From assembly GCA_043810925.1 (NCBI GenBank), contig JBDRNT010000007.1, positions 1 to 50,936 of the forward strand: DNA of 50,936 bases. The letters are read 5' to 3'. The notes beneath the pieces are model-generated. The model did not search any database. It saw nothing but the letters and a program-made list of their open reading frames with translations, and was not told where the DNA came from. The translations under genes and the position numbers were made by a program. The stretch comes from Candidatus Eiseniibacteriota bacterium. GTDB taxonomy: Bacteria > Arandabacterota > Arandabacteria > Arandabacterales > Arandabacteraceae. Positions within the stretch are counted from its first letter, which is position 1; every line of letters begins with the position of its first letter. This document shows, one piece after another, positions 8,182-45,907 of the stretch.

Positions 8182-8189
8182 TTATCGCC

Positions 8190-24325: not shown

Positions 24326-24794
24326 ATCTCCTTTCCTCCTCTCATGCGTAAACCCTTTTTTGCCTTCGACCTCATCACCAGAAAAATAAGAAAGAACAGA
24401 ACCAACGGAATAGATTGCACTACTGAACTTATGAGTCCATTTACTCACGGCTCATGACCTCCTTACTTTACCGTTCTGATGCCGAAGACATACAAAGACC
24501 CCGACCTCCATCGGGAATCTCCTGTCTTCTTGCAGCTTATTTCCGTTCTCAACATTCATGCGCTAAAAAGTTGGTTGCCTGCGAGCGATAAAAAGCACCA
24601 ACGAACATCCCCGTCTGGAGCAGATCTCTCGCAGCGATATTTAGCTCCCTCCTTTCAGATGCAATCCTGACTTGCACAAATCCCCTGTGTGAATTTTCGA
24701 AACCATGCCACACGCACCCATTTGCTGTCAAGTGCAAAACCTGTCTAACTATCCCGGAAAACACTAAACGTCATCTGTCCGAAATTCGGTTGCC

Positions 24795-31151: not shown

Positions 31152-32096
31152 TTAGGACTCTGGATCCGTGACAGTGATCTTGATACCGTCTCTTAGGAGA
31201 TTCTGTCCGAGTACGATGACCTCTTCACCCGGTGCAAGCCCTTCGAGAACCTCATAGTGGGTCGGACCGGCAAGCCCGAGTATCACATGTCTCTCGCGGG
31301 CAATGTCTTCCTCGGCCACGAACACCGTGGTCTCGACTCTGGTGCCTCGTCCGGGCAGTACCTCTGTAAGAGTAGCTGCCAGAGGCATAAGCACGGCGTC
31401 TTTGTGGACTTCAGTTATAGCCTGTACTCTGGCAAACATGCCCGATCTCAGCATGGAGCCGCTGTTCCTTATTCTGATTTCTGCCTTGGCCGTCCCGGTC
31501 CTGGCATCGACGACCGGACTCCTGTTCGTTATCTTTGCCTCCCGGATCTCACCGGCAAGAGCATCGAACTCGATCCGGACCGGCGTACCTTCCTTCATTA
31601 GATGATAGTCTTTCTCAAGCACCCCTATCCCCACCTTGACCGAGCTGTCGTTTATGATCGTCACAAGCGGTTCCATCTGGGTCACATAGGCGCCCGGATC
31701 GAGAAAGACATGCGATATTGTACCCTCGATCGGGGCAGTGACTTCGAAGGGCTCAAACCTCTGCCCGGTTATCTCCGGGTCTATCGTGGCCACGGTCTGG
31801 CCCTTGGCGACCCTGTCATTCTCGTCGACATCGACGGACAGGATGCGTCCGGATATCTTGGGATAGACGTTGACCTGCTCATCAGGCTCTACCGTACCGG
31901 TGTATTTCACAATCCGTTCGACCTGCCCGGTTATGACCGGCTGAACGATCACGGGTACGGCAGCCCCGTTCTCAGCGTTGTTCACAAGATCTTCCCGCGC
32001 CTGTCTGCCTCGTTCGATCGCCTGGATCCGCAAGAAATACGCCACCGCGGCGACCGCCACAACAATCACAACCACGATCAATGCCCGTTTCATCAC
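31152..32096 (-). CDS. RND periplasmic adaptor (short alpha-hairpin type)
   Basis: N-terminal TM, lipoyl halves PKISGRI and APIEGTI, and LRSGMFARV. Confidence 0.92.
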   Translation of the reverse strand: MMKRALIVVVIVVAVAAVAYFLRIQAIERGRQAREDLVNNAENGAAVPVIVQPVITGQVERIVKYTGTVEPDEQVNVYPKISGRILSVDVDENDRVAKGQTVATIDPEITGQRFEPFEVTAPIEGTISHVFLDPGAYVTQMEPLVTIINDSSVKVGIGVLEKDYHLMKEGTPVRIEFDALAGEIREAKITNRSPVVDARTGTAKAEIRIRNSGSMLRSGMFARVQAITEVHKDAVLMPLAATLTEVLPGRGTRVETTVFVAEEDIARERHVILGLAGPTHYEVLEGLAPGEEVIVLGQNLLRDGIKITVTDPES

Positions 32097-33472
32097 CGAG
32101 CTCCTGACTTGTAGTCCTCAAGAAGAATGCCCATGGCCTTCTTTGCCTTCGCTACGGCAAGGTTAAGATCATGGAGCGCCTGGATTCTATTGTTTCTGCC
32201 CCGCGTGAGAGCCAGCTGTGCATCCATCACCTCAAGATTGGTTGCATAGCCCTGGAGATACCTTTCATTGGCTATCGCAAGACCTTCGCCGGCCATCTCC
32301 ACGTTTTTCTCCTGGGACTTGAGCGTTTCGAGCGCGGCGTCGATCACAAGAGCAGCGCTTCTGACTTCGAGCTCTATCCCGTCTTCAAGACCGGCCACGG
32401 CGATATCGGTCTGTCTGAGTTGCGAGTATGATTGCGAGATCCGCGACCTGGTCCTCAAGCCATCGAAGAGCGGGAAACTCATTACGAGGTACCCGGCGTA
32501 GCTCTTCTCCATCTTGTCACTCTCAAGCGTGATTTCGTCCGCCCTTACGTCGTAGTTTGCGGTTAGCGAGAGTGTCGGGTAGCGGCCGGCCTTTGCAAGT
32601 CGTATCGACTCCTCGGCAATCGTCTTCTGGGTTTGCATCATGCCGATCTCGGGACGATGTTCGAGGGCTGTGAGCACCGCATCGGCCGGATCGATTTCGA
32701 ATGCCTTCGCTTCGAATTCGCCGACAAACTCTATGTCCGAACCGGCTTCGACACCCATCGCGTTCTTAAGGGCAAGCTCACTCAGTGCTACCGCGTTCCG
32801 TGCGCCTATCAGGGCGGGTTGTAGATTACTCACCTCTACCTCGGCGCGCATGACCTCGAAACTCGATGCCTCACCGCCGTCGTAGCGTGCACGGACCACC
32901 CGGAGGAATTCCTCGGCCGCCTCTATCGACTGCCTGGTCACCTCGACGGATTCACGCGCGAGCAGCAGCCCGTAGAAAGACTCGATGACCGCAAGCGCGG
33001 CATCGGCCTGTCTGCTCAGAAGATCGATCTCGGCGATCTCATGTGACCGCTTTGCAATCCGGTATGCCCCTGTGAGGCTACCGCCTGCATAAAGGGGCTG
33101 CGACAACATCAGCTGAAACGAGTAGTCCCGCGTGAAGTCGGCGTCGAAGTCCATCGACTGACCCGTGGTGGGATCGGGGATGCTGAACCGGGCGACTTTC
33201 TCGACGAAATTGTAGCTTCCGCTAAGGGACAGGTTGGGCAGGAACCCCGACCTGGCCTCGGCTATGCCGCCTATGGCCTCGGACACCACCTCCTCGCCTT
33301 CAAGGATGCTGAGGTTCTTATCGAGCGCCCGGGCTACGCAATCATCAAGCGTCATCGGGGCCCCGCTCAGAATACCGGGAAGGGCAAGCACCAGAAGTGC
33401 AAGGACGGATACGAGCGCATACAGTCTGCCAGCGCTCACCCGCGGAGCCCGTCCAGTCACTTTGCTGCTCAC
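32093..33472 (-). CDS. TolC-family outer-membrane efflux protein (start uncertain, 33439-33583)
   Basis: Two OEP repeats: LPNLSLSG...QPLYAGG and YPTLSL...PLFDG. Confidence 0.9.
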   Translation of the reverse strand: MSSKVTGRAPRVSAGRLYALVSVLALLVLALPGILSGAPMTLDDCVARALDKNLSILEGEEVVSEAIGGIAEARSGFLPNLSLSGSYNFVEKVARFSIPDPTTGQSMDFDADFTRDYSFQLMLSQPLYAGGSLTGAYRIAKRSHEIAEIDLLSRQADAALAVIESFYGLLLARESVEVTRQSIEAAEEFLRVVRARYDGGEASSFEVMRAEVEVSNLQPALIGARNAVALSELALKNAMGVEAGSDIEFVGEFEAKAFEIDPADAVLTALEHRPEIGMMQTQKTIAEESIRLAKAGRYPTLSLTANYDVRADEITLESDKMEKSYAGYLVMSFPLFDGLRTRSRISQSYSQLRQTDIAVAGLEDGIELEVRSAALVIDAALETLKSQEKNVEMAGEGLAIANERYLQGYATNLEVMDAQLALTRGRNNRIQALHDLNLAVAKAKKAMGILLEDYKSGAR

Positions 33473-33637
33473 TTCTCCTGCCTTGTCAGCTGCGCCTCTG
33501 GTGCGATCATACCGCCTCATAGTCCATAGAATCTTGTGCCAACAGGGGTTAGTCAGATCGACTTCTCCTTCTAATTTTGTCATTTATGCTACCCAGTGCA
33601 AGCAGAAAATGCAACTCATAAACCCGGAGCAGTATGC

Positions 33638-33666
33638 TTGACTGCGTGGCTACCGCCTTCTATAAT
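33638..33666 (+). promoter_or_regulatory. Near-consensus sigma70 promoter
   Basis: TTGACT-17-TATAAT. Confidence 0.75.
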
Positions 33667-33722
33667 CACATCTGTGAAGTAAGGTTAGGCTGGTGACCCA
33701 CTCCTCGGACAAGGAGATTGCA

Positions 33723-34652
33723 ATGACCAGAGTTAACATGCTCAAAGTAGTCGCTCTTTCCGCCCTGCTGGCTACAGCACTCATCACCGGGTGCTCGGAG
33801 AACGAATGTTCTCAACCCGACGGCTGCGTACCCGATCCGGCACTGGGTAACATCTGGCCCAATGAGGATCAAGCGACATGGACGTATGACTATGTCCACC
33901 GTTGGTGGGACTCGCCGGGATTTACCATATATGACGATATCGATAGCGTTCCGCCGGCACCGTCTCTGGACGATATCGCAGCTCTCCTTGATGCTCATCC
34001 CATAGGCGACAGCCCGCAATCGGAGGAGGGCATTTACAGGCTTAAGTTCGACGGAGATACCACGACCGGCCCGGGCGTCACCGCTCAGAATCTCACGCGA
34101 ATGCTGGTTACTGAGGACTGTTTCGATCTCCTCGCAAGTGAGCCGGCCCCGCGTGGAGCCTTTCTCGAGAGATTCTCACCGGCCCTTACCGACACCTTCG
34201 ATGTACTTCCCGACTATCCCATGTTCCTCCGCGGAGGAGCCTGGGAAAAGACGGGCGAGGCGATCGTGGCATACGGCGCGATTGATACCCTCCCCAACTG
34301 GAAGTTCCTCGAGGCAAACCTCGCGGTCGGCCATGAATTCACATTCGAGATCATCTCGGGCGGGCCTCTTCTTCACTGTCGCATTCTCCGCCGCCTGGAC
34401 TTCGAGAGCGGCATCGGGGTGCTTGAGAAGGCAATCGAGTGCCTCTATATGGTGGATTCGGGCGTACTGACATTCGCCTCAGAGTATGGTCCGATAGGCT
34501 GGACAAGGTTCTTCGACTACGGGATCGTTGTGTATGCACCGACCGTAGGGCCGGTCTATAGCTACGAACGGCTGCTTGTGCAACCCGGAGATACCCCGAG
34601 TGCCGGGGCCGCAGAGATAACCGTGAGCCTGATCGGAGCCTCCACCCCCTAA
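33723..34652 (+). CDS. Hypothetical lipoprotein
   Basis: AAGGAG RBS, lipobox ITGC and its own promoter; no family recognised. Confidence 0.8.
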   Translation: MTRVNMLKVVALSALLATALITGCSENECSQPDGCVPDPALGNIWPNEDQATWTYDYVHRWWDSPGFTIYDDIDSVPPAPSLDDIAALLDAHPIGDSPQSEEGIYRLKFDGDTTTGPGVTAQNLTRMLVTEDCFDLLASEPAPRGAFLERFSPALTDTFDVLPDYPMFLRGGAWEKTGEAIVAYGAIDTLPNWKFLEANLAVGHEFTFEIISGGPLLHCRILRRLDFESGIGVLEKAIECLYMVDSGVLTFASEYGPIGWTRFFDYGIVVYAPTVGPVYSYERLLVQPGDTPSAGAAEITVSLIGASTP

Positions 34653-34737
34653 TTTCGGTGACACCAAACTTAATTCCACATAGTTTCGGTGACACCAAAC
34701 TTAATTCCACGCAGTTTCGGGGACACCTTACTTGATT
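34650..34737 (+). repeat. Three tandem 31-bp copies of the family B repeat
   Basis: taatttcggtgacaccaaacttaattccaca / tagtttcggtgacaccaaacttaattccacg / cagtttcggggacaccttacttgatt. Confidence 0.85.
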
Positions 34738-34816
34738 ACCAGGCGGGGCTTCGGGCTCTTCCTGTAGCGCGGGTCGCCGTGTCCGACGAATCGAGACCGG
34801 GCGTAGCTGGCGTAGC

Positions 34817-34972
34817 TCAGGATAGATATCTGAAACACACGAGCGCTACGACAACGAATGCGGCAGGAATCACCAGCCAGAGCAGTTTCCTGAAAGGTGA
34901 TCGAGACCTGCGTCTGTCCTCGTTCTGGAGGAACTCATCCCACTCGTTTTGAGGTCTGCTCAGTACCGACAC
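34817..34972 (-). CDS. Small (51 aa) single-TM protein, possibly frameshifted
   Basis: GGAGGTG RBS, GTG start and hydrophobic segment LLWLVIPAAFVVVALVCF. Confidence 0.5.
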   Translation of the reverse strand: MSVLSRPQNEWDEFLQNEDRRRSRSPFRKLLWLVIPAAFVVVALVCFRYLS

Positions 34973-35099
34973 CGCTCTCACCTCCCACCTCAAGATACCA
35001 TACCCTGACCGATCTGGCAACCAAGCACTCTCCTCCCGCAACCGGGCACTCTCCCCACTGGAATCCTCTTGCGGGAGGTGCCAGTGCGTGTTAGTATCC

Positions 35100-36500
35100 A
35101 TGCACAAGGGAGCTCCATCCGCAAGGATTGCTATAGTGTCACTTCGGGCTTATCGGTTTTCCGCAAGATGGATACAGCTTACAGCAGCGGTTTTGCTCAT
35201 AGGCATCGCCGGCTCTGTCTCCGATATATCCTGGGCGACCCGGCCACCGGTCTTGCCCGTGGATCCTTATCAGGATTACGGCATACAGGTAGTCGCGGAT
35301 CGTCACTCCGGGGTCGTTCCTTTCACCGTCGCCTTCGAGGTGGTCGTAACCGGCAATGAAACCGTGGAAGCGGTACGCTGGGACTTTGACTCGGATGGCA
35401 CGGTGGATGCTCAGGGGCTCAAGACGAGTTACACCTTCTCGGACCCAACCGATTATGAGGTCACCGCCGAAGTCAGGACCTCGTTTCACGGGAGACTCTT
35501 TAGAACTGTAAGGATTTCAGGCCACACTGCTCTCATGACCATAACGTTCGATGACGGCCCGCAGTCAATCCGCGAGCATGGATTGCCGCTCCTGGCGAGT
35601 AAGGGAGTAACGGCTACAGCCTATATCGTACCGGCATGGGTCGGCATGGAGTGGTATCTTCAGTGGGAAGAAATAGCAGAGCTCCATGAGGCGGGCTGGG
35701 TTATTGGCAGCCACACCCAAACGCACCCAAGACTCACCGAGGTCGATGACGCAGACCTTCATCATGAACTGAGCCAGTCCCAGAACGAGTTACAGGGGAG
35801 GGGATTTCCGGCGAGACACCTCGCGGTGCCCCATGGCGACTATGACGCCCGCGTCCTTGCCGCGATAAGACTCTACTATGACACCAATCGAATCATCGGC
35901 GGCTTGAATCCCCTGCCGGAAGCATCCGATCCCTATCTTCTGGGCTCGCATGTGTCGCTGGACTGGATGGGGCTTGGACACTACAGCGCACAGATCGACA
36001 GTGCGGTCGCCCGCCACGGATGGTATGTAATGTGTAATCATTCAATAACCCCGGTTTGCGATGAAGATCCGTGGTGCATCTCGGTACAAATGCTCTCCGA
36101 CGTAATCGACTATGCTCGCAGTAAGCGCGTGAAGATTGTGAACATGGATGAAGCGTTTGACATGATGCATCCCGACCAATGGGCGCCCGGAGCCGGCGTA
36201 GTCGCAAACGGACAAACGGCTACCACTTCGCCCATACAGGCTCTGCGAGTAAGCCGGGGGTATCGGCAGGTGACCATAAAATACGAGGTACTCAATCCCA
36301 CCCGGTTGGGTATCAGGATTTTCGACGTCAGAGGCAGGCTTGTAAGTGCGCTTCTTGATAAGCGGCATGGATGCGGTGAACACAGTATTATCTGGAACGG
36401 TACGGATGTCTACGGCAGGCCTGTGCAAGCCGGCATTTACTTCTGCGAAGTCATAGCCGGGAATACCAGAGAGTGCAGGAAGATTCAGCTTATCCACTAG
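35100..36500 (+). CDS. Secreted PKD + NodB-type polysaccharide deacetylase + FlgD-type CTD, paralogue 1 (start uncertain)
   Basis: WDFDSDG, TFDDG, GSHTQTH and IFDVRGRLV...WNG...GIYF motifs. Confidence 0.88.
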   Translation: MHKGAPSARIAIVSLRAYRFSARWIQLTAAVLLIGIAGSVSDISWATRPPVLPVDPYQDYGIQVVADRHSGVVPFTVAFEVVVTGNETVEAVRWDFDSDGTVDAQGLKTSYTFSDPTDYEVTAEVRTSFHGRLFRTVRISGHTALMTITFDDGPQSIREHGLPLLASKGVTATAYIVPAWVGMEWYLQWEEIAELHEAGWVIGSHTQTHPRLTEVDDADLHHELSQSQNELQGRGFPARHLAVPHGDYDARVLAAIRLYYDTNRIIGGLNPLPEASDPYLLGSHVSLDWMGLGHYSAQIDSAVARHGWYVMCNHSITPVCDEDPWCISVQMLSDVIDYARSKRVKIVNMDEAFDMMHPDQWAPGAGVVANGQTATTSPIQALRVSRGYRQVTIKYEVLNPTRLGIRIFDVRGRLVSALLDKRHGCGEHSIIWNGTDVYGRPVQAGIYFCEVIAGNTRECRKIQLIH

Positions 36501-36663
36501 GCCGAATGACCTGTCAGCATATGGCGACTCCTTCTTCCAAGAGGCAGAAGGGCTCGCTCGTTTCTTACGGAGGGAATGCCGCCCTGGTGGGGGCGAGCTG
36601 CGACGGAGTTTCGTTGAAGAAAACGTCATCGTGTGTTAGTATCGACTCACTCTGGAGCTGCAA

Positions 36664-38046
36664 ATGCGACGAGTGCTTTCACACGAAGTCCCGGGTCATC
36701 AGTCTCTTACGAGACTGATACGGCTAACAGTCTCGGTCATGATCATTGGTCTGGCCGGCTCCAGCCCCGATGCCTCCTGGGCGATCCGGCCGCCTGCTTT
36801 GCCCGTTTATCCCTACCAGAATTTCGATGTACGTGTAGTCGCGGATCGTCACTTCGGAGTCGTTCCTTTCACCGTCGACTTCGAGGTGGTCGTAACCGGC
36901 CATGAAAACTTGCGCATGGTGCGCTGGGACTTTGACTCGGATGGCACGGTGGATGCTCAGGGACTCAAGACGAGTTACACCTTCTCGGATCCAACCGGTT
37001 ATGAGGTCAATGCTGAAATCAGCACTTCTTTTCACGGGAAGCTCTTCAGGACCATCATGATTACGGGCCACACTGCTCTCATGACCATAACGTTCGATGA
37101 TGGTCCGGCGTCAATCCATTACTACGGCTTGCCGCTCTTAGCGAGAAAGGGAGTGACAGCTACAGCTTATATTGTCACGGATTGGGTAGGCCGGGGTTGG
37201 TATCTTGAATGGGAAGAGATACGAGATCTCCAGGAGGCGGGCTGGGTCATAGGAAGTCACACTATGACGCACGCAAGACTTACCCAGGTCGATGAGGCGG
37301 ACCTTCATTATGAACTGAGCCAGTCCCAGAACGAGTTACAGGGGAGGGGATTTCCAGCGAGACACTTCGCAGTGCCCGAAGGCGCTTATGATGCCCGCGT
37401 CCTTGATGCGATCCGACTCTACTATGAAACCAATCGTATTGTCGACGGCCTGAATCCCCTGCCGGAAGAGTCGGATCCCTATCTTCTTGGCTCACATGTC
37501 TCGCTCTCCTGGCTGCCGTTCGAGGCGTATCGTGCACAGATAGACAGTGCAGTCGCCGAGCGCGGATGGTACATAATGTGCAATCACTCGGTAGACCTGA
37601 ATTGCTATAGCAAGCCATGGTGCATCTCAACGGAAATGCTCTCCGACGTAATCGATTATGCGCTCAGTAACGGTGTGAAGATTGTGAATATGGATGAAGC
37701 GCTTGACATGATGCGGTCCGGCCAAGAGGAATGCTCAGTTGGAGTACTCGCAGCCGGACAAACAGATACGCCGGTGCAGATACAGGGTTGGTGGTTTGAC
37801 CCTGGGAATCGGCAGGTGACTATAAGATACGAGGTACTCAACCCCACGCAGGTGGGTATGGAGGTTTACGACGTTCGAGGCAGGCTTGTAAGTGCGCTCC
37901 TTGATAAGCGGCATGGATGCGGTGAACACACAGCCGTCTGGAATGGCACGGATGCTTGCGGTAATCCTGCGGCAACCGGCATTTACTTCTTAGAAGTGAC
38001 GACCGGGAACACCAGACAGTGCATGAAGATCACGGTGATCCGCTAG
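36664..38046 (+). CDS. Secreted PKD + polysaccharide deacetylase + FlgD-type CTD, paralogue 2
   Basis: Same architecture with long near-identical stretches shared with paralogue 1. Confidence 0.88.
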   Translation: MRRVLSHEVPGHQSLTRLIRLTVSVMIIGLAGSSPDASWAIRPPALPVYPYQNFDVRVVADRHFGVVPFTVDFEVVVTGHENLRMVRWDFDSDGTVDAQGLKTSYTFSDPTGYEVNAEISTSFHGKLFRTIMITGHTALMTITFDDGPASIHYYGLPLLARKGVTATAYIVTDWVGRGWYLEWEEIRDLQEAGWVIGSHTMTHARLTQVDEADLHYELSQSQNELQGRGFPARHFAVPEGAYDARVLDAIRLYYETNRIVDGLNPLPEESDPYLLGSHVSLSWLPFEAYRAQIDSAVAERGWYIMCNHSVDLNCYSKPWCISTEMLSDVIDYALSNGVKIVNMDEALDMMRSGQEECSVGVLAAGQTDTPVQIQGWWFDPGNRQVTIRYEVLNPTQVGMEVYDVRGRLVSALLDKRHGCGEHTAVWNGTDACGNPAATGIYFLEVTTGNTRQCMKITVIR

Positions 38047-38083
38047 GCGTACCATCCGGGATGACTTCCGCGACTTCTTCTCG
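38045..38083 (+). repeat. Degenerate att-like scar R0
   Basis: aggcgtaccatccgggat matches the R4 core at 13/18; reads RRTIRDDFRDFF. Confidence 0.55.
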
Positions 38084-38995
38084 CTACCTGAACATCCTCT
38101 TGATGTTGCCCCACGTACCCGGCTCAACCTGCGACGGGCCTCCGCCTGAAATAGCAACGGCGTAGTTGATCTCCGCGTTAATGCCCGGATAGAGCGGGGT
38201 TATGACCCACTTGATCCCGTTCCACTGGTAAGGCACCGTGCGCGGTCCGACTCCGGCAGGCGGTCCGCCCAGGATCCCAATATCGTCGGAATCGGTTATG
38301 GTAAGCATCAGGTTCGCTATGTCGATGTCCCACAAGGTGATCGCATGATAACCGAATGCCGTCGACAGGTTATACGGACCAGGAGCTTCCTCGTAGGGTA
38401 TGGTCGGAGTGGTCCCATCCGATGGCTGAAACCAGCAGGTGAGCCCTACGGGCACGCACTCGGTGTCAAGCCTGGCCTTGCACCACTTGATGGGATCGAC
38501 CGGAAGCCCGGCACCGGTGAACCACGGACCTCCGAACTCAGGATTGGTCCGGATGGGCACATGGAACGGCGACCCGGCAAAACTTAAGCCCCAATCCTGC
38601 CAACCACCATCGTCGAAGGTCCTGGCACCGGGGCCGCATGCCCAGTATGGAAGACCCCAGACACTCAGGTTAGGATCAGGAGGTACGCCATTCAGCAACC
38701 AGCCCATGTACGGGTTTGCGAAACCCGAATATACCAGCAGATTGCTCGTGCTTGCCAGCCAACAGCTGAGGTCGGGCCGGACGGCATTGTGCACCGCATC
38801 TCCACCGGCGAGAAAAGGCTCACCGGGGTCGTGGCACATGTTAAGGTTTATATCGTTGTAGTGCAGGATGTAAAGCTGACCCGCTGCGGACCAGGACTGC
38901 TTGTTCTGGTCAACCGGAGGGCCTGGCTGCGCAACCAGCGTCGAGACGCAAGCCAAGACAATGGCCGCGGTGATAATCATGCTCATCATCTTCAT
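38084..38995 (-). CDS. Secreted IdeS/Mac-like (papain-fold) cysteine protease candidate with TWGxIK tail
   Basis: Signal peptide; SCWLASTSNLL, HAITLW and ITDSD motifs; ends TWGNIKRMFR. Confidence 0.7.
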   Translation of the reverse strand: MKMMSMIITAAIVLACVSTLVAQPGPPVDQNKQSWSAAGQLYILHYNDINLNMCHDPGEPFLAGGDAVHNAVRPDLSCWLASTSNLLVYSGFANPYMGWLLNGVPPDPNLSVWGLPYWACGPGARTFDDGGWQDWGLSFAGSPFHVPIRTNPEFGGPWFTGAGLPVDPIKWCKARLDTECVPVGLTCWFQPSDGTTPTIPYEEAPGPYNLSTAFGYHAITLWDIDIANLMLTITDSDDIGILGGPPAGVGPRTVPYQWNGIKWVITPLYPGINAEINYAVAISGGGPSQVEPGTWGNIKRMFR

Positions 38996-39088
38996 ATTAA
39001 CACCCCCTTTGCTCGCCTATTGTAGCAGAGATCGGCAACAATAGTCAACCACTGAAGGCCTGAAACCTCACATTTCAGAGCACTGAGA

Positions 39089-39160
39089 TGGCGGGGCCGA
39101 CCGGACGAGTCTCCTGAGAACCTCACCTCCAAGGAATGCGTTCAAACGGCCCAGCTCACA
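39089..39160 (+). repeat. att-like scar R1 (tRNA-Asp 3' end plus conserved tail)
   Basis: TGGCGGGGCCGACCGGAC matches the tRNA 3' end at 17/18; reads WRGRPDESPENLTSKECVQTAQL. Confidence 0.85.
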
Positions 39161-39216
39161 GAGGCGGCATATCCTTGGGCACCGCTTGTCCATGGAATGG
39201 GTGAACGTCAAGAGCC

Positions 39217-40344
39217 TCAGAGCCGCCGCAGCAAGATCAGAGAGAGATCATCGCTTGTGGGCTCATCACCGACAAATTTCTCCACTTGCTCAACGATCCG
39301 CCTGCCCGCTGCCTCTGCCGAAAGTCCTTCAATGTCCGGCACGAGCTCAGCCAGACGATCATCTCCGAAGAACTCCTCCTGCGCGTTGCAGGCCTCGGTC
39401 ACACCGTCCGAGTATAAAAGCAGCATCTCACCTCGCCCGAGCTGTACCGTCTGCCCGGGAAAGTCTGAATCGGGCACAACACCCAGCGGAGGCGCCACCG
39501 GCGGCAGCGTATCATGTGAACCGTGCTTGACCCTGATCGGCGGCATGTGACCGGCATTCACCAGGCGGACGGTGCCCGCTTCCGGGTCCAGGGCCATGTA
39601 CACCGCGGTGGCAAAACTCCCCGAGGGGGTATCCCGGTAGAGAATCACGTTCGTGTGGGCAATCAGAGCAGATGGCGATTCAAAATCCCCGGCCGATCCC
39701 CTCAGGGTCGCCTGAAGCTTGGCCATGAGCAGCGCCGCTCCCAAGCCCTTGCCGGAGACATCCGCCAGAACGAGGTCGAGCCGCCTCTCATCGACCTTGA
39801 GGTAATCAACCAGATCTCCCCCGACGTCATTTGCGGGCCGGCTGAAGAGCCAGATGTCCCAGCCGGGCAGCGCCGGGCTCTCGCCGGGGAGAAGCGCAAG
39901 TTGCACCGCGCGGCCCAGCTTCAGCTCGTCTCGTGCCAGGAGTTTGTCCTTGAGCTCAAGCATGAGGACAATGAGCAGGAGCAGAAAACCGGTCTTGCTC
40001 AGATCGGTATGGAAGTGGGATGAACCGGCTCGGAAGCCGACGTCGCCCAACATCAGGAACAAGAGCGAGAGCACTGCCAGGACGCGCCGTACGGGCGATA
40101 GACTGAGGATCATGCTTTTGAGAATCCACCAGAGGACGACGAACCAGCGCTTGACTCGCCACATGGCCTTCAGTCGCGCCTGTTCTTCTTCGTCGAGATA
40201 AAAGCGATAGAGGTCTCTGAGATCCTTCCTCATGCCCCGCCTGAGATCACCGTGCTTGAGATCGCCAAGCATGGTTGCGGCGATTCCGCGACGCCCTCCA
40301 GGTCTGCTTTGTTGCTCTTCTGTGTCGCCGGTTTCCATATTCAT
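39217..40344 (-). CDS. Membrane-bound PP2C/SpoIIE-family Ser/Thr phosphatase (start uncertain)
   Basis: VGGD, ADVSGKG, NAGH, YSDGVTE and DDLS motifs; N-terminal TM helices. Confidence 0.93.
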   Translation of the reverse strand: MNMETGDTEEQQSRPGGRRGIAATMLGDLKHGDLRRGMRKDLRDLYRFYLDEEEQARLKAMWRVKRWFVVLWWILKSMILSLSPVRRVLAVLSLLFLMLGDVGFRAGSSHFHTDLSKTGFLLLLIVLMLELKDKLLARDELKLGRAVQLALLPGESPALPGWDIWLFSRPANDVGGDLVDYLKVDERRLDLVLADVSGKGLGAALLMAKLQATLRGSAGDFESPSALIAHTNVILYRDTPSGSFATAVYMALDPEAGTVRLVNAGHMPPIRVKHGSHDTLPPVAPPLGVVPDSDFPGQTVQLGRGEMLLLYSDGVTEACNAQEEFFGDDRLAELVPDIEGLSAEAAGRRIVEQVEKFVGDEPTSDDLSLILLRRL

Positions 40345-40435
40345 CTGCTTACCCCGTGGGTTATCTCTCTGCTGCACATGATATTACACCTGATTTCCCT
40401 GCACAAGGAAAACAGGGGCAGGGCGGAATAGAGGA

Positions 40436-40515
40436 TAGCGGGGCCGACGGGGCGAGTTTCGCAACTTCCTCAGGTCTGAGGGGTGCCTGAAAACCGCCCG
40501 GCTCGTGGGAGCTTG
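40436..40515 (+). repeat. att-like scar R2
   Basis: TAGCGGGGCCGACGGGGC matches at 16/18; reads *RGRRGEFRNFLRSEGCLKTARLV. Confidence 0.85.
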
Positions 40516-40568
40516 CCGGTTGTGTTGGTGGCAACCACAGGATTTGGTATAATGAGTATGGGTGGAAC

Positions 40569-41411
40569 ATGAGACTGAAGACTCTGGTGTGCACTGTCTG
40601 TATGTTCACTACCGCTGTGGCGATGGGCCAACCGTCCGCAGACAGCAGTGGAGAACCATCAATTGAGTTTCCCTACGTTCTGAAAATCGCTCCCGGTAAC
40701 GTACTTGTCGTTTACGGGCACGTGATTCGTAACGAGGTTTTGGTCACCTGGGAACCCGGGGATAGTCTGCGAGTAGAAGGCCTGCCTATACTCCCGAAAC
40801 CTTCTGTCCCCCGCATTGTACTCTCAGAGCACGGTCTGGCCAAGACCTATGGAAGAGTTGACTATGTTCGGGAACGTGTCGACAGTGGTTATACCTGGCG
40901 GCAGGCGACTGACGCGTCGTTCCAGAAGAGGCATGAAGAAATCCAGTCTGCCCGAGCCGTTTATGCGACGGTAATAGACTCAACGGGATCCCACGAGAAG
41001 GCGGCAAGAGCTGTTTCCAATTCGTTCGACCGATCGCTCTTGAGGCCAGGTTATGAGCCAGTCGTAACGCTCACTCACACAAGTGTGGAATGGCAGGGGG
41101 GGTTCACGGATCACGATATGCCCGAGCTTGAGTTCAACCGGGGGAACCCCGACTTCAAGGAGATATTCAAGAAAACAACCGAGGAAGGTCGAGCTTGTTT
41201 TAAGACAAGACAACTCGTCTGGTGGTTAGGCGGGCCTGGAATCTGCGTTGTTATGGAGAACCCGGGCGGTATGAGAGCCTCTTGTGGAGATTCGGCTCGC
41301 AGAGCCGTCGCTCAGATCGAAGCGGCGGAGATGGGCAGTATCAAAGAAGGCCGGATTGATGAGACGGATCTGAGGCGGATAATTGACACCCAGGCACCTG
41401 AGTCGGAATGA
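40569..41411 (+). CDS. Hypothetical secreted protein
   Basis: Signal-peptide-like N-terminus and TATAAT promoter just upstream; stop lies 1 nt before R3. Confidence 0.75.
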   Translation: MRLKTLVCTVCMFTTAVAMGQPSADSSGEPSIEFPYVLKIAPGNVLVVYGHVIRNEVLVTWEPGDSLRVEGLPILPKPSVPRIVLSEHGLAKTYGRVDYVRERVDSGYTWRQATDASFQKRHEEIQSARAVYATVIDSTGSHEKAARAVSNSFDRSLLRPGYEPVVTLTHTSVEWQGGFTDHDMPELEFNRGNPDFKEIFKKTTEEGRACFKTRQLVWWLGGPGICVVMENPGGMRASCGDSARRAVAQIEAAEMGSIKEGRIDETDLRRIIDTQAPESE

Positions 41412-41412
41412 G

Positions 41413-41499
41413 CGGCGGGGCCGACGGGACGAGTTTCGCAACTCTCTTAGGTCTGAGAAGTGCTTTAAGACCGCTGGCCCGGTGCCCTGCCTTGTTTGA
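41413..41499 (+). repeat. att-like scar R3
   Basis: CGGCGGGGCCGACGGGAC matches at 17/18; reads RRGRRDEFRNSLRSEKCFKTAGPVPCLV*. Confidence 0.88.
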
Positions 41500-41542
41500 T
41501 CCCTACCCTGCTGACGGTGCTTTCCGACAACTGAGACCAGTC

Positions 41543-42187
41543 TCAACGTTCTTCCGGACACAAATGCAGGTAGGATCCTGCAAACGCGATGAAGTCCTGA
41601 AGATCGACGTCGCCGTCCCAATCAAAGTCCACACACCACTCGTCACCAAGATAGGCTGTGGCGAAGAAGATGAAGTCCTGCAGGTCAACATCACAGTCGG
41701 CATCGGTATCCGGACTGGCCGTGGTTATGCGGTTGCTCGGGCCAAGTTCGACACCCTCACTCACGATCGAGAACTGAAGACCACAGTCGCCGCCATCACC
41801 TGACTTAGTGTCACATCCACCGAAGTGAGAGAAGGTCACCGAACAGGTGCCGGTGATATCCGTCAGGCAGCTTGCGGGTGCTTCACCCGGACAGAAACAG
41901 TGACCTGGCTTATACCCTGGCCCAGGATCAACATCCACGATGATGGGATCCACGACCACCCAATGATCCCGAAGCGGAGTCCCATAGCAGTCTCTGACAT
42001 TTACCGTCACTGTCACCACGTCCGTGTCACTCGCGGGACGGTAGGTACCACGATCCGGTGTCGCAATTCCGTCTGAAGTCCCCGCACAAGGAACTCCCGC
42101 ATATGTAGCGCCGGCAAGAAACACCATCGCGGTGATCGCGGCAAACACAACGATGCCGAGGCAGACAGGCGAGAAAGTCTTAGTCAT
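41543..42187 (-). CDS. Secreted Cys-rich Ig-like protein with dockerin-like double EF-hand C-terminus
   Basis: GGAGG RBS, signal peptide, DTDADCDVDLQDF and DFDWDGDVDLQDF. Confidence 0.8.
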   Translation of the reverse strand: MTKTFSPVCLGIVVFAAITAMVFLAGATYAGVPCAGTSDGIATPDRGTYRPASDTDVVTVTVNVRDCYGTPLRDHWVVVDPIIVDVDPGPGYKPGHCFCPGEAPASCLTDITGTCSVTFSHFGGCDTKSGDGGDCGLQFSIVSEGVELGPSNRITTASPDTDADCDVDLQDFIFFATAYLGDEWCVDFDWDGDVDLQDFIAFAGSYLHLCPEER

Positions 42188-42346
42188 AACCCACACCTCC
42201 TTGCTTGCCGTATTATACCACAGATAGCAGATAAATCAAGTGACGAGATGGGCTTGGGTGCGGTTAGGAAGAGACAACGTGATCCCCGGCAGTAGACGAC
42301 CGATGGGCATCTGCCGCCTCCGGCAGTATCGAGGGCTGAGATTCAA

Positions 42347-42433
42347 TGGCGGGCCATACGGGACGATTATAGAACTTTCCTGAGGTCGGAGGAGTGCCGT
42401 AAGACTGCTCAGTTGTTGGCCTGTCTCACATGA
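42347..42433 (+). repeat. att-like scar R4
   Basis: TGGCGGGCCATACGGGAC matches at 15/18; reads WRAIRDDYRTFLRSEECRKTAQLLACLT*. Confidence 0.8.
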
Positions 42434-42615
42434 TTGGTCTACGGATCCAGAGACCCCAAACGGAGCGTTCCACGCGGGGTATATCTGAACCCTTTCTGCG
42501 TGTGCCCACGCGAAAGAACGGGGGTGTACCGGGCGCATAGGGAGCTATGTCGCTACGCTACCCTTGCGGAGTAGTCTGCTATGCGGCCAGGTGCCACTCT
42601 CCTGACAGTCTGCCG

Positions 42616-43209
42616 TTATTTGAACACAGCTTTGATATCGCCCCATGTGCTGGATTCTATCCCCATAGTCCCACAAGGATTCTCACCGGACGAACCTCCA
42701 ATACCAGCACAGAAGCTCCTGCTTGTTAAGACACTGTCTGCTGTAGTGCCGCCCTGGCAGTCGGCAGCGCTGATACGATCGAACAGCGGGTGTGGGATTA
42801 CGCAAACCGTACCAAAATCAAAGATCCAGGCCCAACCGGGGATGCCAACGGGGCCCGGCTGGCATGTTGCCCACGCATGCGCAATGCCATCACCCGGCCA
42901 GACGATGTCTCCGATGGTAAGATAGCTGCAGCTCGTGAACACGCAGCTATAGAGCCCCGGCCAGCTCATTCCGTAGTCAAAACCCTGATATTCGACCATA
43001 TCAAAGAATACAGGGAAAGCATCCACATCGTGGCTTGTCTCAGTCTCGATGATATCCGCGCAGCCCGCAATCGTCGGTAAGCCGCTACAAGTTCGCGAAG
43101 CATGAGGCAAAACGTGAACTGCAACCTTGGCATCCGTGTTCAGCCCGGCAAACGCAACAACAGATATGGCGGCGACAGCAATACAAGAAAGCAATAGCGT
43201 TCTAAACAT
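42616..43209 (-). CDS. Secreted Cys-rich hypothetical protein with TWGxIK tail
   Basis: GAGGAGG RBS, ATG at 43209, signal peptide; ends STWGDIKAVFK. Confidence 0.82.
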   Translation of the reverse strand: MFRTLLLSCIAVAAISVVAFAGLNTDAKVAVHVLPHASRTCSGLPTIAGCADIIETETSHDVDAFPVFFDMVEYQGFDYGMSWPGLYSCVFTSCSYLTIGDIVWPGDGIAHAWATCQPGPVGIPGWAWIFDFGTVCVIPHPLFDRISAADCQGGTTADSVLTSRSFCAGIGGSSGENPCGTMGIESSTWGDIKAVFK

Positions 43210-43384
43210 ATCCCGCACCTCCTCTCGGGAAGCATTGTAGCACAGGCACCTCGCAAAGTCACGTGAAATCCCAGGACTTGCCCGGAGCGGTTCGAGGCCC
43301 GATTGCCATGGAAGCGGCAACGCTAACAGTCAAAGATAACAGGAGAACCTCTGGGGCGCTGAAACCGGACCCTGCAGAAGGCAG

Positions 43385-43462
43385 TGGCGGGGCCGACGGG
43401 ACTCGAACCCGCGACCTCTGGCTTGACAGGCCAGTGTGCTAACCAAGCTGCACCACGACCCC
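43385..43462 (-). tRNA. tRNA-Asp(GTC)
   Basis: Cloverleaf with GGGGTCG/CGGCCCC acceptor stem, CTGGC-CTGTCAA-GCCAG anticodon arm, GGTTCGAGTCC T arm and encoded CCA. Confidence 0.98.
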
Positions 43463-43484
43463 GCTCAGTGTTGGTCCAAACTTG

Positions 43485-43513
43485 AAGATATCAGGGGAAA
43501 GGCCGGGTGTCAA
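43485..43513 (-). promoter_or_regulatory. tRNA promoter
   Basis: TTGACA-17-TATCTT with an extended TG. Confidence 0.7.
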
Positions 43514-43532
43514 CAGATATGTGCACCGCCAA

Positions 43533-43560
43533 TGGGGTCAGGCTTTGAATACTGGAATTC
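43533..43560. repeat. Single family A arm
   Basis: tggggtcaggctttgaatactggaattc. Confidence 0.8.
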
Positions 43561-43622
43561 TGCTGGGAGAATCAATCTGTCGGGCGCGTGCACCCGGCGC
43601 CACAGGGCATCAGCCCTCCACG

Positions 43623-43647
43623 ATTAGGCTTGGTGTCACCGAAATTA
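43623..43647 (-). repeat. Family B repeat overlapping the anmK stop codon
   Basis: Minus strand TAATTTCGGTGACACCAAGCCTAAT. Confidence 0.8.
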
Positions 43648-44829
43648 GGTGGGGTGGATGGAGCCGAGGATGGCGGGCGCAAGACCGTGGGATTGGGACA
43701 CTATGTTGGCGGGGATGCGTTTGAGGCAGAGGTAGCCGAGGTAGGCGAAGGCACATGCTTCCCTGGTGAGCGATGGAATTCCCAATGCTTCACCGGTCAT
43801 AACCTCCGACTCGGGAAGTCTGGTCTTCAACCCTTCCATCAAGACGGAGTTCCGGCTGCCGCCGCCGGTGACGATGATCTCATCCACACTCATCAGTGGG
43901 GCAACGTGACCGCGTATCGCGCGTGCAATGGACTCACACGTAAATTCGGTCAGCGTACTTATGATGGTCGAATGGCTGAGGCCTCTCGAAAGCATGCGCT
44001 CAAGCACACTCTTCGTGAAGGGTACACCAAATTCTTCCCAGCCGGTGGACTTGGGTGGCTTCCGCCTGAAATAGGAATGCTCGAGGAGCCGTTTCAACTC
44101 CTGCACATCGGGCTCTCCCCTGTGTGCCATCTCGCCGTCCCGGTCAAAGCCCACCTCACCGCCCGTCAGCAGCGAAACGGCTATGTCGATCATGCAGTTA
44201 CCAGGACCGGTATCAAAGGCGACGATGTCCTTTGGAGATGCGCCTCGGGCAACGCCTGTAAGGTTGGCGATCCCTCCTATATTAAGCGCGATGCGTGACT
44301 TCTTCGAAGAACGCAACGTGGCGTAGTCATAGACGGGAACCAGGGGTGCTCCCTCACCACCGACTGCGATATCGGCGGACCGGAAGTCCGTTACGGTGGT
44401 GATCCCCGTTACCTGTGCGATCACAGCCCCTGATCCAACCTGGAGTGTGGAGCTTACCGTTCTCCAGCCCAGCTTCGCACCGCTTGGCAGATGAAGCAAG
44501 GTCTGGCCGTGGGAGCCGATGCAGTCGATATCGGCGGGCTTGAGGCCTGCGTGGTTGATTGTCTGCAACGCTTTCTCTCCAAACAACCTGCCCAGCATAA
44601 AACGCATGCCGGCCACATCCTGAAGCGCGAGCTCTTCAGGCTCCTTCATCAGGAGTTCCCTGACTGACCCAGGATACTGATAATCCTCCGAATGGATGTG
44701 CCGGATCCGGTTCCGGGGATACCTCCCTCCTATCTCAACTATGGCGACATCGATCCCATCGCGGGATGTCCCTGACATGATGCCGCAGGCTATGAAGGGT
44801 TTGCGGCGCGATTGAGATTGCTTCGTCAC
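43645..44829 (-). CDS. anmK: Anhydro-N-acetylmuramic acid kinase (start 44829 GTG or 44856 ATG)
   Basis: GIMSGTSRDG, GSHGQT, GGEGAPLVP, NIGGIAN, FDTGPGN and PKSTG motifs. Confidence 0.95.
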   Translation of the reverse strand: MTKQSQSRRKPFIACGIMSGTSRDGIDVAIVEIGGRYPRNRIRHIHSEDYQYPGSVRELLMKEPEELALQDVAGMRFMLGRLFGEKALQTINHAGLKPADIDCIGSHGQTLLHLPSGAKLGWRTVSSTLQVGSGAVIAQVTGITTVTDFRSADIAVGGEGAPLVPVYDYATLRSSKKSRIALNIGGIANLTGVARGASPKDIVAFDTGPGNCMIDIAVSLLTGGEVGFDRDGEMAHRGEPDVQELKRLLEHSYFRRKPPKSTGWEEFGVPFTKSVLERMLSRGLSHSTIISTLTEFTCESIARAIRGHVAPLMSVDEIIVTGGGSRNSVLMEGLKTRLPESEVMTGEALGIPSLTREACAFAYLGYLCLKRIPANIVSQSHGLAPAILGSIHPT

Positions 44830-44911
44830 TTCGTTCCTCGCAATGACAGAATTCATCCTCGTAATGACAGAAGACGGCCCCGCGATGACAGAAGACAGCC
44901 CCGCGATGACA
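44814..44911. repeat. GAGATTGCTTCGTC...CCTCGCAATGAC palindromic repeat (family C) plus ~21-bp tandem copies
   Basis: gagattgcttcgtcacttcgttcctcgcaatgac followed by three cc(t/c)cg(t/c)(a/g)atgaca units; a variant occurs at 45792-45828. Confidence 0.75.
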
Positions 44912-44922
44912 TTGACACGGCT

Positions 44923-45747
44923 TTAACCACGGACTGCTCCTTCGGTTATACCTCTTACAATATGCCTCTGGAAGAAGCCAAATGCCACTATGGTCGGTAT
45001 CGCAGCCAGTGCGGCGCCGGCCATCAGGAGTCCCCAGTCAACACTGTGCTCACCCTGGGCGAAGATCGCAAGCCCCACCGGCAGCGTCCTCACGCGGTCG
45101 GAATTCGTGAGCACGAATGGAAGCAGAAACGAGTTCCAGGTTATTAGAAACGTGTTTGTCGCAACTACGACAAGCGCAGGCTTAAGCGCCGGGAAGACGA
45201 CCTTGGTGAAAGTCGTCATGAGGCTTGCCCCATCGATGAATGCCGCCTCTTCTATGTCCCGGGGTATGGTCTTCACATACTGGTGGATGAAAAAGACGTT
45301 AAAGGCATCCACCAGGAACGGAAGGATAAGTGCGTAGTAGGTGTCGATGAGATTCATCCGGAGGAGCAGCGTGAAGAGCGGAATCATCATGATGTGTTTG
45401 GGTATCATCATAGTTGATATCAGGAGGAAGAGCATCACACCCGCGCTTCTGCCCCCGCTCCTTGCGATCGCATAGGCCGCCATCGAGGCTAGTATGACGT
45501 TTCCGAACACAACGAAGGTGACGACGACCGTGCTGTTAAGGAAGTATCTGGCGAAAGGGCCCTGACTTAGGATCTCGCCGTAGTGCTCGAGTGTGGGAGC
45601 GGCCGGTATGAGGTCCTTCAGAGCACTCAGAACCCCGCCTTCACTCTTCAGCGATACCGAGAGCATGACATAAAGCGGGAAGAGATTGATGACAAGGACG
45701 ATGAGAAGCACAATCCCGACGAGAGTTATCCCTGTACGCTCCCTCAT
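44923..45747 (-). CDS. Carbohydrate ABC transporter permease (MalG-like)
   Basis: IPRDIEEAAFIDGA (EAA motif), WNSFL and RTLPVGL. Confidence 0.95.
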   Translation of the reverse strand: MRERTGITLVGIVLLIVLVINLFPLYVMLSVSLKSEGGVLSALKDLIPAAPTLEHYGEILSQGPFARYFLNSTVVVTFVVFGNVILASMAAYAIARSGGRSAGVMLFLLISTMMIPKHIMMIPLFTLLLRMNLIDTYYALILPFLVDAFNVFFIHQYVKTIPRDIEEAAFIDGASLMTTFTKVVFPALKPALVVVATNTFLITWNSFLLPFVLTNSDRVRTLPVGLAIFAQGEHSVDWGLLMAGAALAAIPTIVAFGFFQRHIVRGITEGAVRG

Positions 45748-45760
45748 CTCACCCTCTCCC

Positions 45761-45898
45761 TGGGGTCAGGCTTTGAATTCTGGAATTCCGCGAGATCGCC
45801 GCGTTCCCTCCGGGAGCTCGCGATGACACACGTAGTCCCCGGACGCCCCTCAATGGCAGCATGCGGCCCGCAATTCCAGAATTCAAAGCCTGACCCCA
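45761..45898. repeat. Family A inverted-repeat element inside the ABC operon
   Basis: TGGGGTCAGGCTTTGAATTCTGGAATT ... AATTCCAGAATTCAAAGCCTGACCCCA. Confidence 0.88.
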
Positions 45899-45907
45899 TT
45901 TTTCATC

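Follow-up and report, generated by a model that had tools for sequence, protein, structure and literature searches.

The question raised by this locus is why the last nucleotides of a tRNA gene recur several times downstream of it, with a single gene between each copy and the next. The stretch analyzed (the window) is the entire 50.9-kb contig C7 of the metagenome-assembled genome (MAG) G000, which consists of 185 contigs and is 91.7% complete and 1.8% contaminated, and the gene in question is its tRNA-Asp. A first-pass annotation had described here an integron-like array of single-gene cassettes anchored at the tRNA. The observation is real, lineage-wide and larger than that annotation reported, and the best reading of the region is a tandem array of five 0.9–1.35 kb single-gene, integrase-less cassettes at the 3' end of tRNA-Asp (Table 1). 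As to its origin, we find it fairly probable, though by no means certain, that small cassettes bearing attachment (att) sites were serially integrated at tRNA 3' ends by a putative recombinase acting in trans.

The last 18 nt of the tRNA-Asp lie at 43385–43402, and their sequence is repeated downstream of the gene. With up to three mismatches allowed, five matches were found on the plus strand of the window, the tRNA itself included; the copies starting at 39089, 40436, 41413 and 42347 have one, two, one and three mismatches to the tRNA tail, respectively. Only 0.12 matches were expected by chance and none of 100 shuffled sequences gave five, which makes the four copies first reported, all sharing strand and orientation with the tRNA, statistically solid. 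Also the intervals of 1038, 934, 977, 1347 and 1044 bp were as first given, and the degenerate copy noticed at 38045 proved to be a real truncated element (38046–38079, minus strand; 8.2 bits, E = 0.02, positions 71–104 of the covariance model R1 described below), the fifth-best match in 11.5 kb. Each interval has one long open reading frame (ORF), four co-oriented with the tRNA and one (40569–41411) opposite, and the ORF at 39217–40377 encodes a SpoIIE/PP2C protein, the phosphatase recognized in the first pass.

What the first pass overlooked is that the 18-mer merely ends a longer repeat, of 80–100 nt, the remainder of which is not derived from a tRNA. The identity of the copies to the tRNA-Asp does end after 18 nt, within the T-loop, as had been noted, and the alignment shows 60–80 extra bases on the tRNA-5' side that are conserved among the copies and have no homology to the tRNA body. 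The element of ~80–100 nt is composed of this conserved arm and a core resembling the tRNA 3' end and terminating in CCA. The 18-nt core corresponds to two T-loop bases, the 3' strand of the T-stem, the 3' strand of the acceptor stem, the discriminator and CCA, and every copy has a tail made up of the T-stem 3' strand, seven bases of the acceptor, a purine discriminator and CCA. Those seven bases vary between groups of copies, the arm being constant across tRNAs and always on the tRNA-proximal side of the core. Its length ranges from ~60 to ~130 nt, the upper value being reached by some copies of the same genome outside the window.

The window contains five elements and five cassettes. The core of the element next to the first cassette (copy 1) is a variant in which four acceptor-strand bases differ from the tRNA. 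A profile built from the copies found 29 copies in the genome at E < 1e-3 (nhmmer), and the sequence-only covariance model R1 found 33. Six of those outside the window follow a second tRNA-Asp gene (contig C21), three lie on the 4.7-kb contig C33 and five on C143, and R1 detected no further element between 32.5 and 38 kb of the window. Next to the core lies a 21-mer that many copies from different genera and two families share without a difference. Between genera, the elements are 85–93% identical, compared with 66–86% for coding flanks.

The element was further analyzed as a possible structured sequence. Five copies, folded as single-stranded DNA for both strands (n = 10 folds), gave z-scores from −0.66 to +0.79 versus shuffles and no attC-like hairpin, RNAalifold found no conserved pair in 55 copies (tRNA-sense strand only), and the Rfam scan of 37900–43600 detected only the tRNA. 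Since the folds, RNAalifold and Rfam were all null, the conservation is placed at the level of the sequence. These results speak against the element being a non-coding module (a 3' untranslated region or terminator, a small RNA or a promoter block) that has spread with accessory genes and owes its tRNA likeness to RNA processing. Such a module would agree with the 50 of 74 cassette ORFs that are co-oriented with the element, the element lying just 3' of the gene, with the many genes whose ...TWGxIKxxY/F-R/K C-terminus stops ~10 nt before the element, and with the promoter-like sites after the elements. However, the other 24 ORFs are opposite and the cargo is unrelated, the arrays are tied to tRNA genes whose local sequence the tails match at Asp and Trp, and homology between genomes breaks at the elements. 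We consider this explanation improbable.

Some other identities were tried and rejected. As to a tRNA-like fold, the arm cannot, on reading, pair with the core as a T-arm/acceptor helix, and the core variants do not covary. A half hammerhead-like motif seen by eye on the opposite strand was dropped, having no second half and no Rfam match, and likewise a group-II-intron-like start seen by eye after some copies, with no Rfam match and no reverse transcriptase. A miniature inverted-repeat transposable element (MITE) or repetitive extragenic palindromic (REP)-type repeat fits neither the lack of a hairpin nor the orientation of the copies, which within arrays are all co-oriented with the tRNA.

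The distribution of the element was examined with both the 21-mer and R1. With at most two mismatches, the 21-mer was present in 11 of the 41 genomes (G000 and 40 relatives), including eight of 12 in its own family and one of three in the sister family; one match with two mismatches was isolated in a distant genome, and a reversed control gave ~0 matches. R1 detected copies in 12 of the 18 genomes of the class, all in the families f1 and f2 of one order and in neither of the two genomes of f3. Their numbers were 33 in G000, 19 in G001, 14 in both G002 and G008, ten in G009, nine in G013, six in both G007 and G003, five in G011, three in G006 and two in both G004 and G014, and R1 found no copy in G005, G010, G012, G015, G016 or G017. 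The exact-pattern scan with the 21-mer gave at least 112 metagenome stretches and no match in viral contigs.

An assembly or binning artefact of the MAG is hardly credible when these data are considered. It might be suspected from the 185 contigs of the genome, from the many copies at contig ends and from C21, which is possibly mis-binned, its flank from AnmK to tRNA-Asp being ~72% identical to that of the window and ~86% to those of two other genera. The array of the window is nevertheless internal to the 50.9-kb contig, with housekeeping genes on both sides, and the same architecture recurs in 12 genomes, each an independent assembly, and in at least 112 metagenome stretches. Also short contigs of an independent public run match portions of two cassette bodies (40975–41362 and 41773–42011) without difference, none of them spanning an element junction.

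On every contig that also carries a tRNA gene, the copies lie downstream of this gene and share its orientation. Arrays at other tRNA genes, which the first-pass annotation had thought worth seeking, were found at Trp, Arg, Glu and Asn as well as Asp (Table 1). Terminal identity to the local tRNA was at least 7 nt in 18 of the 27 elements of tRNA-headed arrays. All five elements of the Trp arrays share 8–14 nt with tRNA-Trp, versus 4 nt with the best non-cognate tRNA. Because the terminal 6–8 nt track the local tRNA (Asp, Trp) while the preceding bases are specific to the element, strand exchange would seem to take place at the extreme tRNA 3' end. The same comparison bears on an origin of the plus-strand 18-mers as primer-binding sites of retroelements, as these are complementary to the last 18 nt of tRNA-Asp. 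A length of 18 nt is classic for such sites and a limit of identity in the T-loop is textbook geometry, and both fit the copies. Yet no reverse transcriptase domain was found in the 75 cassette proteins or in the window, the copies lie beside and co-oriented with the matching tRNA instead of being independently dispersed, and the cores of the Trp arrays match tRNA-Trp, making this origin very improbable.

Two further features were observed near the elements and tRNA tails. Many copies with a tRNA-Asn-like tail (L035:~1180–1500, L010, L037, L044) are followed by another conserved non-coding module, ~180 nt long, which contains a promoter-like TTGAAA-17-TGTGATATT block. Fragments of 25 nt from the tRNA-Asn 3' end, which extend deeper into the T-arm and lack the arm of the element, are present outside intact tRNAs (L083–L086, L088) in G001 (four copies), G000 (C103), G002 and G007. 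The fragments are probably att remnants of a different family of integrative elements.

The occupancy of the tRNA-Asp locus was compared among relatives, in which the flank 5' of the tRNA, with AnmK and ABC permeases, is conserved across the family. Serial capture, as first proposed, implies that gene order downstream of the tRNA varies, and the order was not fixed: two relatives have an empty site and others unrelated cassettes. In G008 (C4; genome 98% complete) and G002 (C20; 99%), the tRNA-Asp is directly followed by TolC, HlyD, an RND pump, OmpA and a giant protein. Because the same TolC block begins at ~33583 in the window, the region 33.6–43.4 kb is an insertion relative to these two genomes. 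G004 and G007 have other, shorter insertions at tRNA-Asp, that of G007 including a 76%-identical homologue of the cassette E gene ~1.5 kb from the tRNA. Among G000 (C21), G011 (C185) and G009 (C80), the flanks are 84–87% identical and the homology ends exactly at the tRNA 3' end, downstream of which the three have only elements in common.

The flank of AnmK, permease and tRNA-Asp on C21 (locus L001) was aligned to window positions 43463–48750, where it is 70–75% identical to C7, and it is 84–87% identical to G011:C185 and G009:C80, which represent two other genera. The tRNA-Asp is the only duplicated tRNA of the genome. This could reflect mis-binning of C21, perhaps also of C33, from a related organism, or else a transfer of the region.

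The claim that the repeats bound discrete cassettes was borne out by pairs of genomes sharing a cassette. Cassette E is 87% identical to a copy in G009 (C404) that lies between two full elements, a cassette of C21 is 75% identical to one in G003 (C92), and a cassette of C143 is 79% identical to one in G007 (C150). In each of the three pairs, identity climbs in the upstream element, remains high across the cassette and is back at background level within one 40-nt window of the downstream core, and the neighboring cassettes are unrelated. The housekeeping flank of G000 and G009 is ~70% identical, and the 87% identity of cassette E against it suggests that the cassette was exchanged between lineages or that cassette and flank differ in their history. 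In the same-genus genome G001, the lipoprotein and both deacetylases that lie beyond the array in the window are present, with an extra 621-aa gene between the deacetylases. It lacks window positions 38045–41529, which comprise the cassettes C, D and E together with their elements, and has a B-like gene joined directly to the second deacetylase; the missing segment begins where one element starts and stops where the truncated element at 38046–38079 ends.

The cargo was surveyed from 75 cassette proteins. The domains recognized were beta-helix, serpin, DUF4185, outer-membrane barrels, OmpA, M48 peptidase and NHL propellers, two AbiE toxin-antitoxin pairs, catalase, methyltransferases, Ser/Thr kinases with TPR, CHAT-TPR, a two-component pair, sulfatases, a radical-SAM enzyme and the PP2C phosphatase of the window. 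The cargo genes are unrelated to one another, and one interval of 8.9 kb contains a DDE (rve) fragment. The role in diversifying the secretome proposed in the first pass was not upheld, the cargo, with its AbiE pairs, catalase, kinases, methyltransferases and sulfatases, not being specifically secreted.

The first-pass statement that the array has no integrase remained valid on a larger scale. No PF00589 or PF00239 match was found on C7 and no transposase or phage domain among the scanned window ORFs of at least 100 aa, nor did the 75 cassette proteins contain an integrase, resolvase or reverse-transcriptase domain. The whole genome has 14 tyrosine-recombinase and four resolvase-domain matches, none of them on contigs with arrays except on C172, where they are >30 kb from a weak element copy. 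In five further genomes (G001, G002, G008, G009 and G011) the nearest recombinase was ~6 kb from a partial element, and the lack of a nearby integrase holds across all assemblies examined. Among 80 metagenome loci (395 kb with 70 elements), none of the 509 ORFs matched nine recombinase queries in phmmer searches, which remote families could escape, and no recurrent neighbor gene was found, the commonest ORF family being present in five of the 80 loci.

One recombinase of the genome stands out weakly as a candidate on the basis of its similarities and occurrence. It is a 289-aa protein (C161:83115–83984) whose best matches among curated models are the archaeal XerA/integron-integrase model with 169 bits and the integron-integrase model TIGR02249 with 160.9 bits (below the cut-off of 265), the latter split into two pieces by the lack of the IntI-specific insertion. 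Orthologues, 67–96% identical, are present in 12 of the 15 other genomes of the order and outside the order nothing is closer than 34%; the clade of the orthologues is also the clade holding the elements. The gene, the sole one resembling an integron integrase, is on another contig than the array and has no element nearby. Other candidates were rejected: a 286-aa multi-copy tyrosine recombinase (C24; disrupted on C32 and C57; also in G008) was not found in G001, G009 and G011, which have elements, and XerC and XerD, although present in the genome, are universal and hence uninformative, with nothing tying them to the elements. Cores were also sought near recombinase genes with a loose motif, which gave only noise.

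As a separate observation on C32 (L049:815–3986), three adjacent tyrosine recombinase genes (332, 311 and 414 aa), resembling a 'recombinase in trio' arrangement, form an element inserted in a copy of the 286-aa recombinase gene. C57 has the same disruption point and the copy on C24 is intact.

The anatomy of the element, its family-wide distribution, the variable occupancy of the sites and the cassette-exact breakpoints were observed directly, and no recombinase was found in cis. From these we infer a circular intermediate, a recombinase acting in trans and possibly activity at the present day. In the proposed mechanism, a circular cassette with arm and core would recombine with the identical stretch at the tRNA 3' end, catalyzed by a site-specific, probably tyrosine, recombinase encoded elsewhere. 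Integration would rebuild the tRNA and leave the arm and core behind the cassette; a newcomer would enter beside the tRNA, and older cassettes would be displaced outward. The conserved, T-arm-like block of the arm next to the core may be the binding site of the recombinase, which could then read a T-loop/T-stem-like motif, shared by the targeted tRNAs, on both partners, the element and the tRNA. The order of tRNA, cassette, arm, core and finally the original flank is the expected product of serial integration at a tRNA 3' end.

Several observations weigh against serial integration by such an enzyme. No recombinase was tied to the elements in the genomes and metagenome loci examined, and the co-occurrence of the C161-type recombinase and the elements in 18 genomes is imperfect, with both present in nine, only the recombinase in four, only elements in three and neither in two. 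The indel in G001 leaves no element, while simple core-by-core excision would leave one, and homologues of the A-like and B-like genes are also present in element-free clusters (G001:C180). Elements of the Arg, Glu and Gln arrays are identical to the local tRNA over their terminal 0–6 nt, which is no better than their match to non-cognate tRNAs, and several arrays or solo copies (L030, L040, L032, L068) have no tRNA on the contig within 4–18 kb. The cores of C7 have one to three substitutions, two of them in the terminal CCA, and the array of C7 may for that reason be old and inactive. No excised circle, empty-site read, joint or bridging piece was seen in the one run found, which consists of contigs only, contains 0.11 of the sampled words and is silent on excision. 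Finally, all the genomes are fragmented MAGs, and an integrase-bearing master element could be unassembled or unbinned.

Some of these points would agree with the arrays being fossils, that is, old tandem islands at tRNA genes which once bore integrases and lost these and most of their genes, the att remnants serving as ~100-nt portable homology by which general homologous recombination, with or without transformation, would shuffle, delete and duplicate the genes in between, with no dedicated recombinase active. Tandem accretion at tRNAs, scattered partial tRNAs and degraded elements are documented in tycheposons (10.1101/2020.12.28.424599). The degenerate C7 cores, a segmental duplication of array pieces in G002 (C17 versus C31, 77–84% identical) and the failure to tie any recombinase to the elements agree with such an origin, and the element-free indel of G001 fits imprecise or homologous events better than site-specific excision. 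On the other hand, no integrase fragment was detected in the 75 cassette proteins, and none of the 509 ORFs of the 80 metagenome loci gave a match to the nine recombinase queries. The arm is at least as well conserved as coding flanks, which decaying remnants should not be; the elements are many, the units small and spread across many genomes, and the cores differ by tRNA with the arm unchanged. We regard a fossil origin as rather doubtful, though it keeps appreciable weight because of the indel without an element, the decayed C7 cores, the arrays without a visible tRNA and the absence of any mobility intermediate among our observations.

Serial integration by an enzyme in trans, our preferred reading, could be extended to the whole order, although we think the extension unlikely as it stands. 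The uncultivated order would then run an integron-like capture system evolved independently of integrons, with entry at the 3' ends of at least five tRNA genes (Asp, Asn, Trp, Arg, Glu), a double-stranded, sequence-specific site of ~100 nt in place of the folded attC, self-expressed cassettes and one chromosomal recombinase acting in trans and reading the T-arm-like motif, for which the order-specific 289-aa integron-integrase-like protein without the IntI insertion is the best candidate. If active, the arrays would represent a second, independent route to cassette arrays, with entry at tRNAs, reading of a double-stranded site and no enzyme alongside, and they would explain the lineage-wide swapping of single accessory genes, among them those for secreted beta-helix proteins, serpins, toxin-antitoxin pairs, catalase and kinases, at several fixed chromosomal sites. 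The conserved arm provides a sequence handle for such cassettes in metagenomes, where at least 112 stretches match, and a defined substrate for identifying the recombinase. Software for integrons or islands that is keyed to integrases or to the attC fold would presumably miss such arrays.

In comparison to known systems, the array appears as a variant of tRNA-site integration resembling integrons and cis-mobilizable elements, with a proposed mechanism that is plausible. Integrons and clusters of attC sites lacking integrases (CALINs) share the logic of the array (PMC4889954). Both here and in integrons, small, mostly single-gene cassettes are co-oriented and each is closed by a repeat resembling a recombination site, the repeats are homogeneous and specific to a lineage, as they are in chromosomal integrons, the content varies between relatives and includes toxin-antitoxin cargo, and there is a single fixed entry point at the head of the array. 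Unlike in integrons, the head is a tRNA 3' end and not attI by intI, there is no adjacent integrase, the repeats show conservation of sequence and lack the imperfect single-stranded hairpin defining attC, a type of site conserved in structure instead of sequence, the cassettes appear to have promoter-like sites, 24 of 74 ORFs are inverted, and arrays are found at at least five tRNA loci per lineage. The integron analogy of the first pass has to be narrowed, as neither an adjacent intI nor a folded attC is present and the cassettes appear to have promoter-like sites.

As in islands at tRNA sites, direct repeats of the tRNA 3' part bound the insert. An integrase inside the element was found neither in the 75 cassette proteins nor in the 509 ORFs, the nine phmmer queries having limited sensitivity. 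Tycheposons of Prochlorococcus accrete in tandem at tRNAs, where each new arrival pushes the older elements inward, and they were recognized by their integrases, 937 integrase-carrying elements being reported (10.1101/2020.12.28.424599). Partial tRNA copies left at tRNA 3' parts, displacement of older elements away from the tRNA and adaptive cargo are common to both, while the units here have no integrase, are 0.6–3 kb and not multi-gene, have an arm of ~100 nt per copy and reach 33 copies per genome at most. No domain of an integrase or replication module, the hallmarks of tycheposons, was present in the cassette proteins.

Integrase-less, att-flanked cis-mobilizable elements (CIMEs) are known from streptococcal families of integrative conjugative (ICE) and integrative mobilizable (IME) elements (PMC5704250). 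They are similar in being att-flanked, in having no recombination or transfer genes, as found also here, and in their tandem position at the same tRNA or gene 3' end; the units here differ in forming long single-gene arrays. CIMEs are regarded as deletion derivatives that rely on a cognate ICE integrating alongside. A cognate integrase-bearing element with the same att was not found in G000, G001, G002, G008, G009 or G011, in the 80 metagenome loci or in viral contigs, which is weak evidence with assemblies so fragmented. In Xer-dependent modules, such as the pdif modules of Acinetobacter plasmids and the integrative mobile elements exploiting Xer (IMEX) at dif, small modules with short sites are moved by housekeeping recombinases. 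The likeness lies in small gene modules in either orientation, short recombination sites and enzymes encoded elsewhere; the sites here are, by eye only, not of the dif-like 28-bp 11-6-11 form, and the anchor is a tRNA gene. No description of tRNA-anchored, single-gene, integrase-less cassette arrays with a conserved arm was found in full-text searches, which did not cover subscription journals, and a prior description is possible.

Table 1. Features of the tRNA-Asp locus in the window and contigs with tRNA-headed arrays in the genomes and metagenomes.
Feature	Position or contig	Strand	Evidence and remarks
TolC-like outer membrane efflux gene, first of conserved flank	32093..33583	-	directly after tRNA-Asp in G008 and G002
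Rest of tRNA-linked variable island, without element copies	33584..38045	.	ORF content, relatives
Truncated element copy 5, last ~34 nt	38046..38079	-	R1 E = 0.02; distal end of element-bounded array
Cassette E body; ORF 38084-38995(-)	38080..39088	-	C-terminus ...TWGNIKRMFR; promoter-like site 39048-39019
Element copy 4, arm more diverged	39089..39166	-	17/18; 37.0 bits
Cassette D body; ORF 39217-40377(-), membrane-anchored SpoIIE/PP2C phosphatase	39167..40435	-	PF07228, 167 bits
Element copy 3	40436..40513	-	16/18; 58.1 bits
Cassette C body; ORF 40569-41411(+)	40514..41412	+	no Pfam match
Element copy 2	41413..41508	-	17/18 vs tRNA tail; 54.6 bits
Cassette B body; ORF 41543-42196(-)	41509..42346	-	no Pfam match; promoter-like site 42239-42212
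Element copy 1, arm + core	42347..42442	-	nhmmer E = 1e-18; R1 61.4 bits
Cassette A body; ORF 42616-43320(-)	42443..43384	-	no Pfam match; likely ATG start 43211 behind GGAGG
tRNA-Asp(gtc), array head	43385..43462	-	ARAGORN, sole tRNA in window; Rfam tRNA 68.7 bits
AnmK, conserved flank 5' of tRNA	43645..44856	-	conserved across family
tRNA-Asp arrays	C7, C21, G011:C185, G009:C80		
tRNA-Trp arrays	G008:C11, G002:C77		
tRNA-Arg(ccg) arrays	G001:C161, G002:C31, G000 C172		
tRNA-Glu array	G002:C27		
tRNA-Asn array	metagenome locus L148		

Within the cassettes of the window, the ORFs A, B, C and E had no Pfam match. Hydrophobic N-termini were detected in B and C by a crude regular expression and in A and E by reading the sequence only; B is a secreted-looking protein with, as read from its sequence, dockerin-like D-rich repeats. 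The ORF of cassette C is the only one opposing the tRNA, and its stop codon abuts the core of copy 2. Integron cassettes have no promoter and are expressed from a common one at the array head. Here a consensus scan found eight promoter-like sites versus 2.5 ± 1.5 expected, all being consensus matches only. Promoter-like sites with a TG-extended -10 are situated just upstream of ORFs A, B and E, that of A at 43262–43234, and the cassettes appear to carry promoter-like sites of their own.

The ORF of cassette A has the C-terminus ...STWGDIKAVFK. An extreme C-terminal motif ...(S/T)WGxIKxx(Y/F)(R/K)-stop is shared by many secreted-looking proteins and has no Pfam match. It was found in ORFs of 14 of the 48 array intervals and also in element-free clusters (G001:C180), the loci including 38084–38995 and 42616–43320 in the window and 7781–8809 and 8991–10034 in L001, among others. 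It suggests a C-terminal signal for sorting or anchoring that is particular to this lineage.

The island at 33584–38045 contains a lipoprotein-like ORF of 319 aa at 33693–34652 (plus strand) and two tandem paralogous polysaccharide deacetylases with FlgD-Ig tails at 35088–36500 and 36664–38046 (both on the plus strand), which are inside the tRNA-linked island but have no element boundaries. Just after the lipoprotein-like ORF, at ~34650–34740, there are about three tandem units of ~30 nt, and this stretch of ~90 nt recurs at 80–89% identity on at least eight other contigs. Another repeat of ~30 nt is present at 45761–45790, 45869–45898, 43531–43559, 11259–11287 and 11370–11393 and on at least 15 other contigs, in both orientations and with 90–100% identity, often as inverted pairs ~100 nt apart, which resembles the REP type. 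The ORF of 3501 aa at 13943–24448 has only a recognizable C-terminal tail of the FlgD-Ig or type IX secretion system (T9SS)-like kind, and it is conserved beside the RND operon in relatives, with 46% identity to that of G002 over the first 1000 aa.

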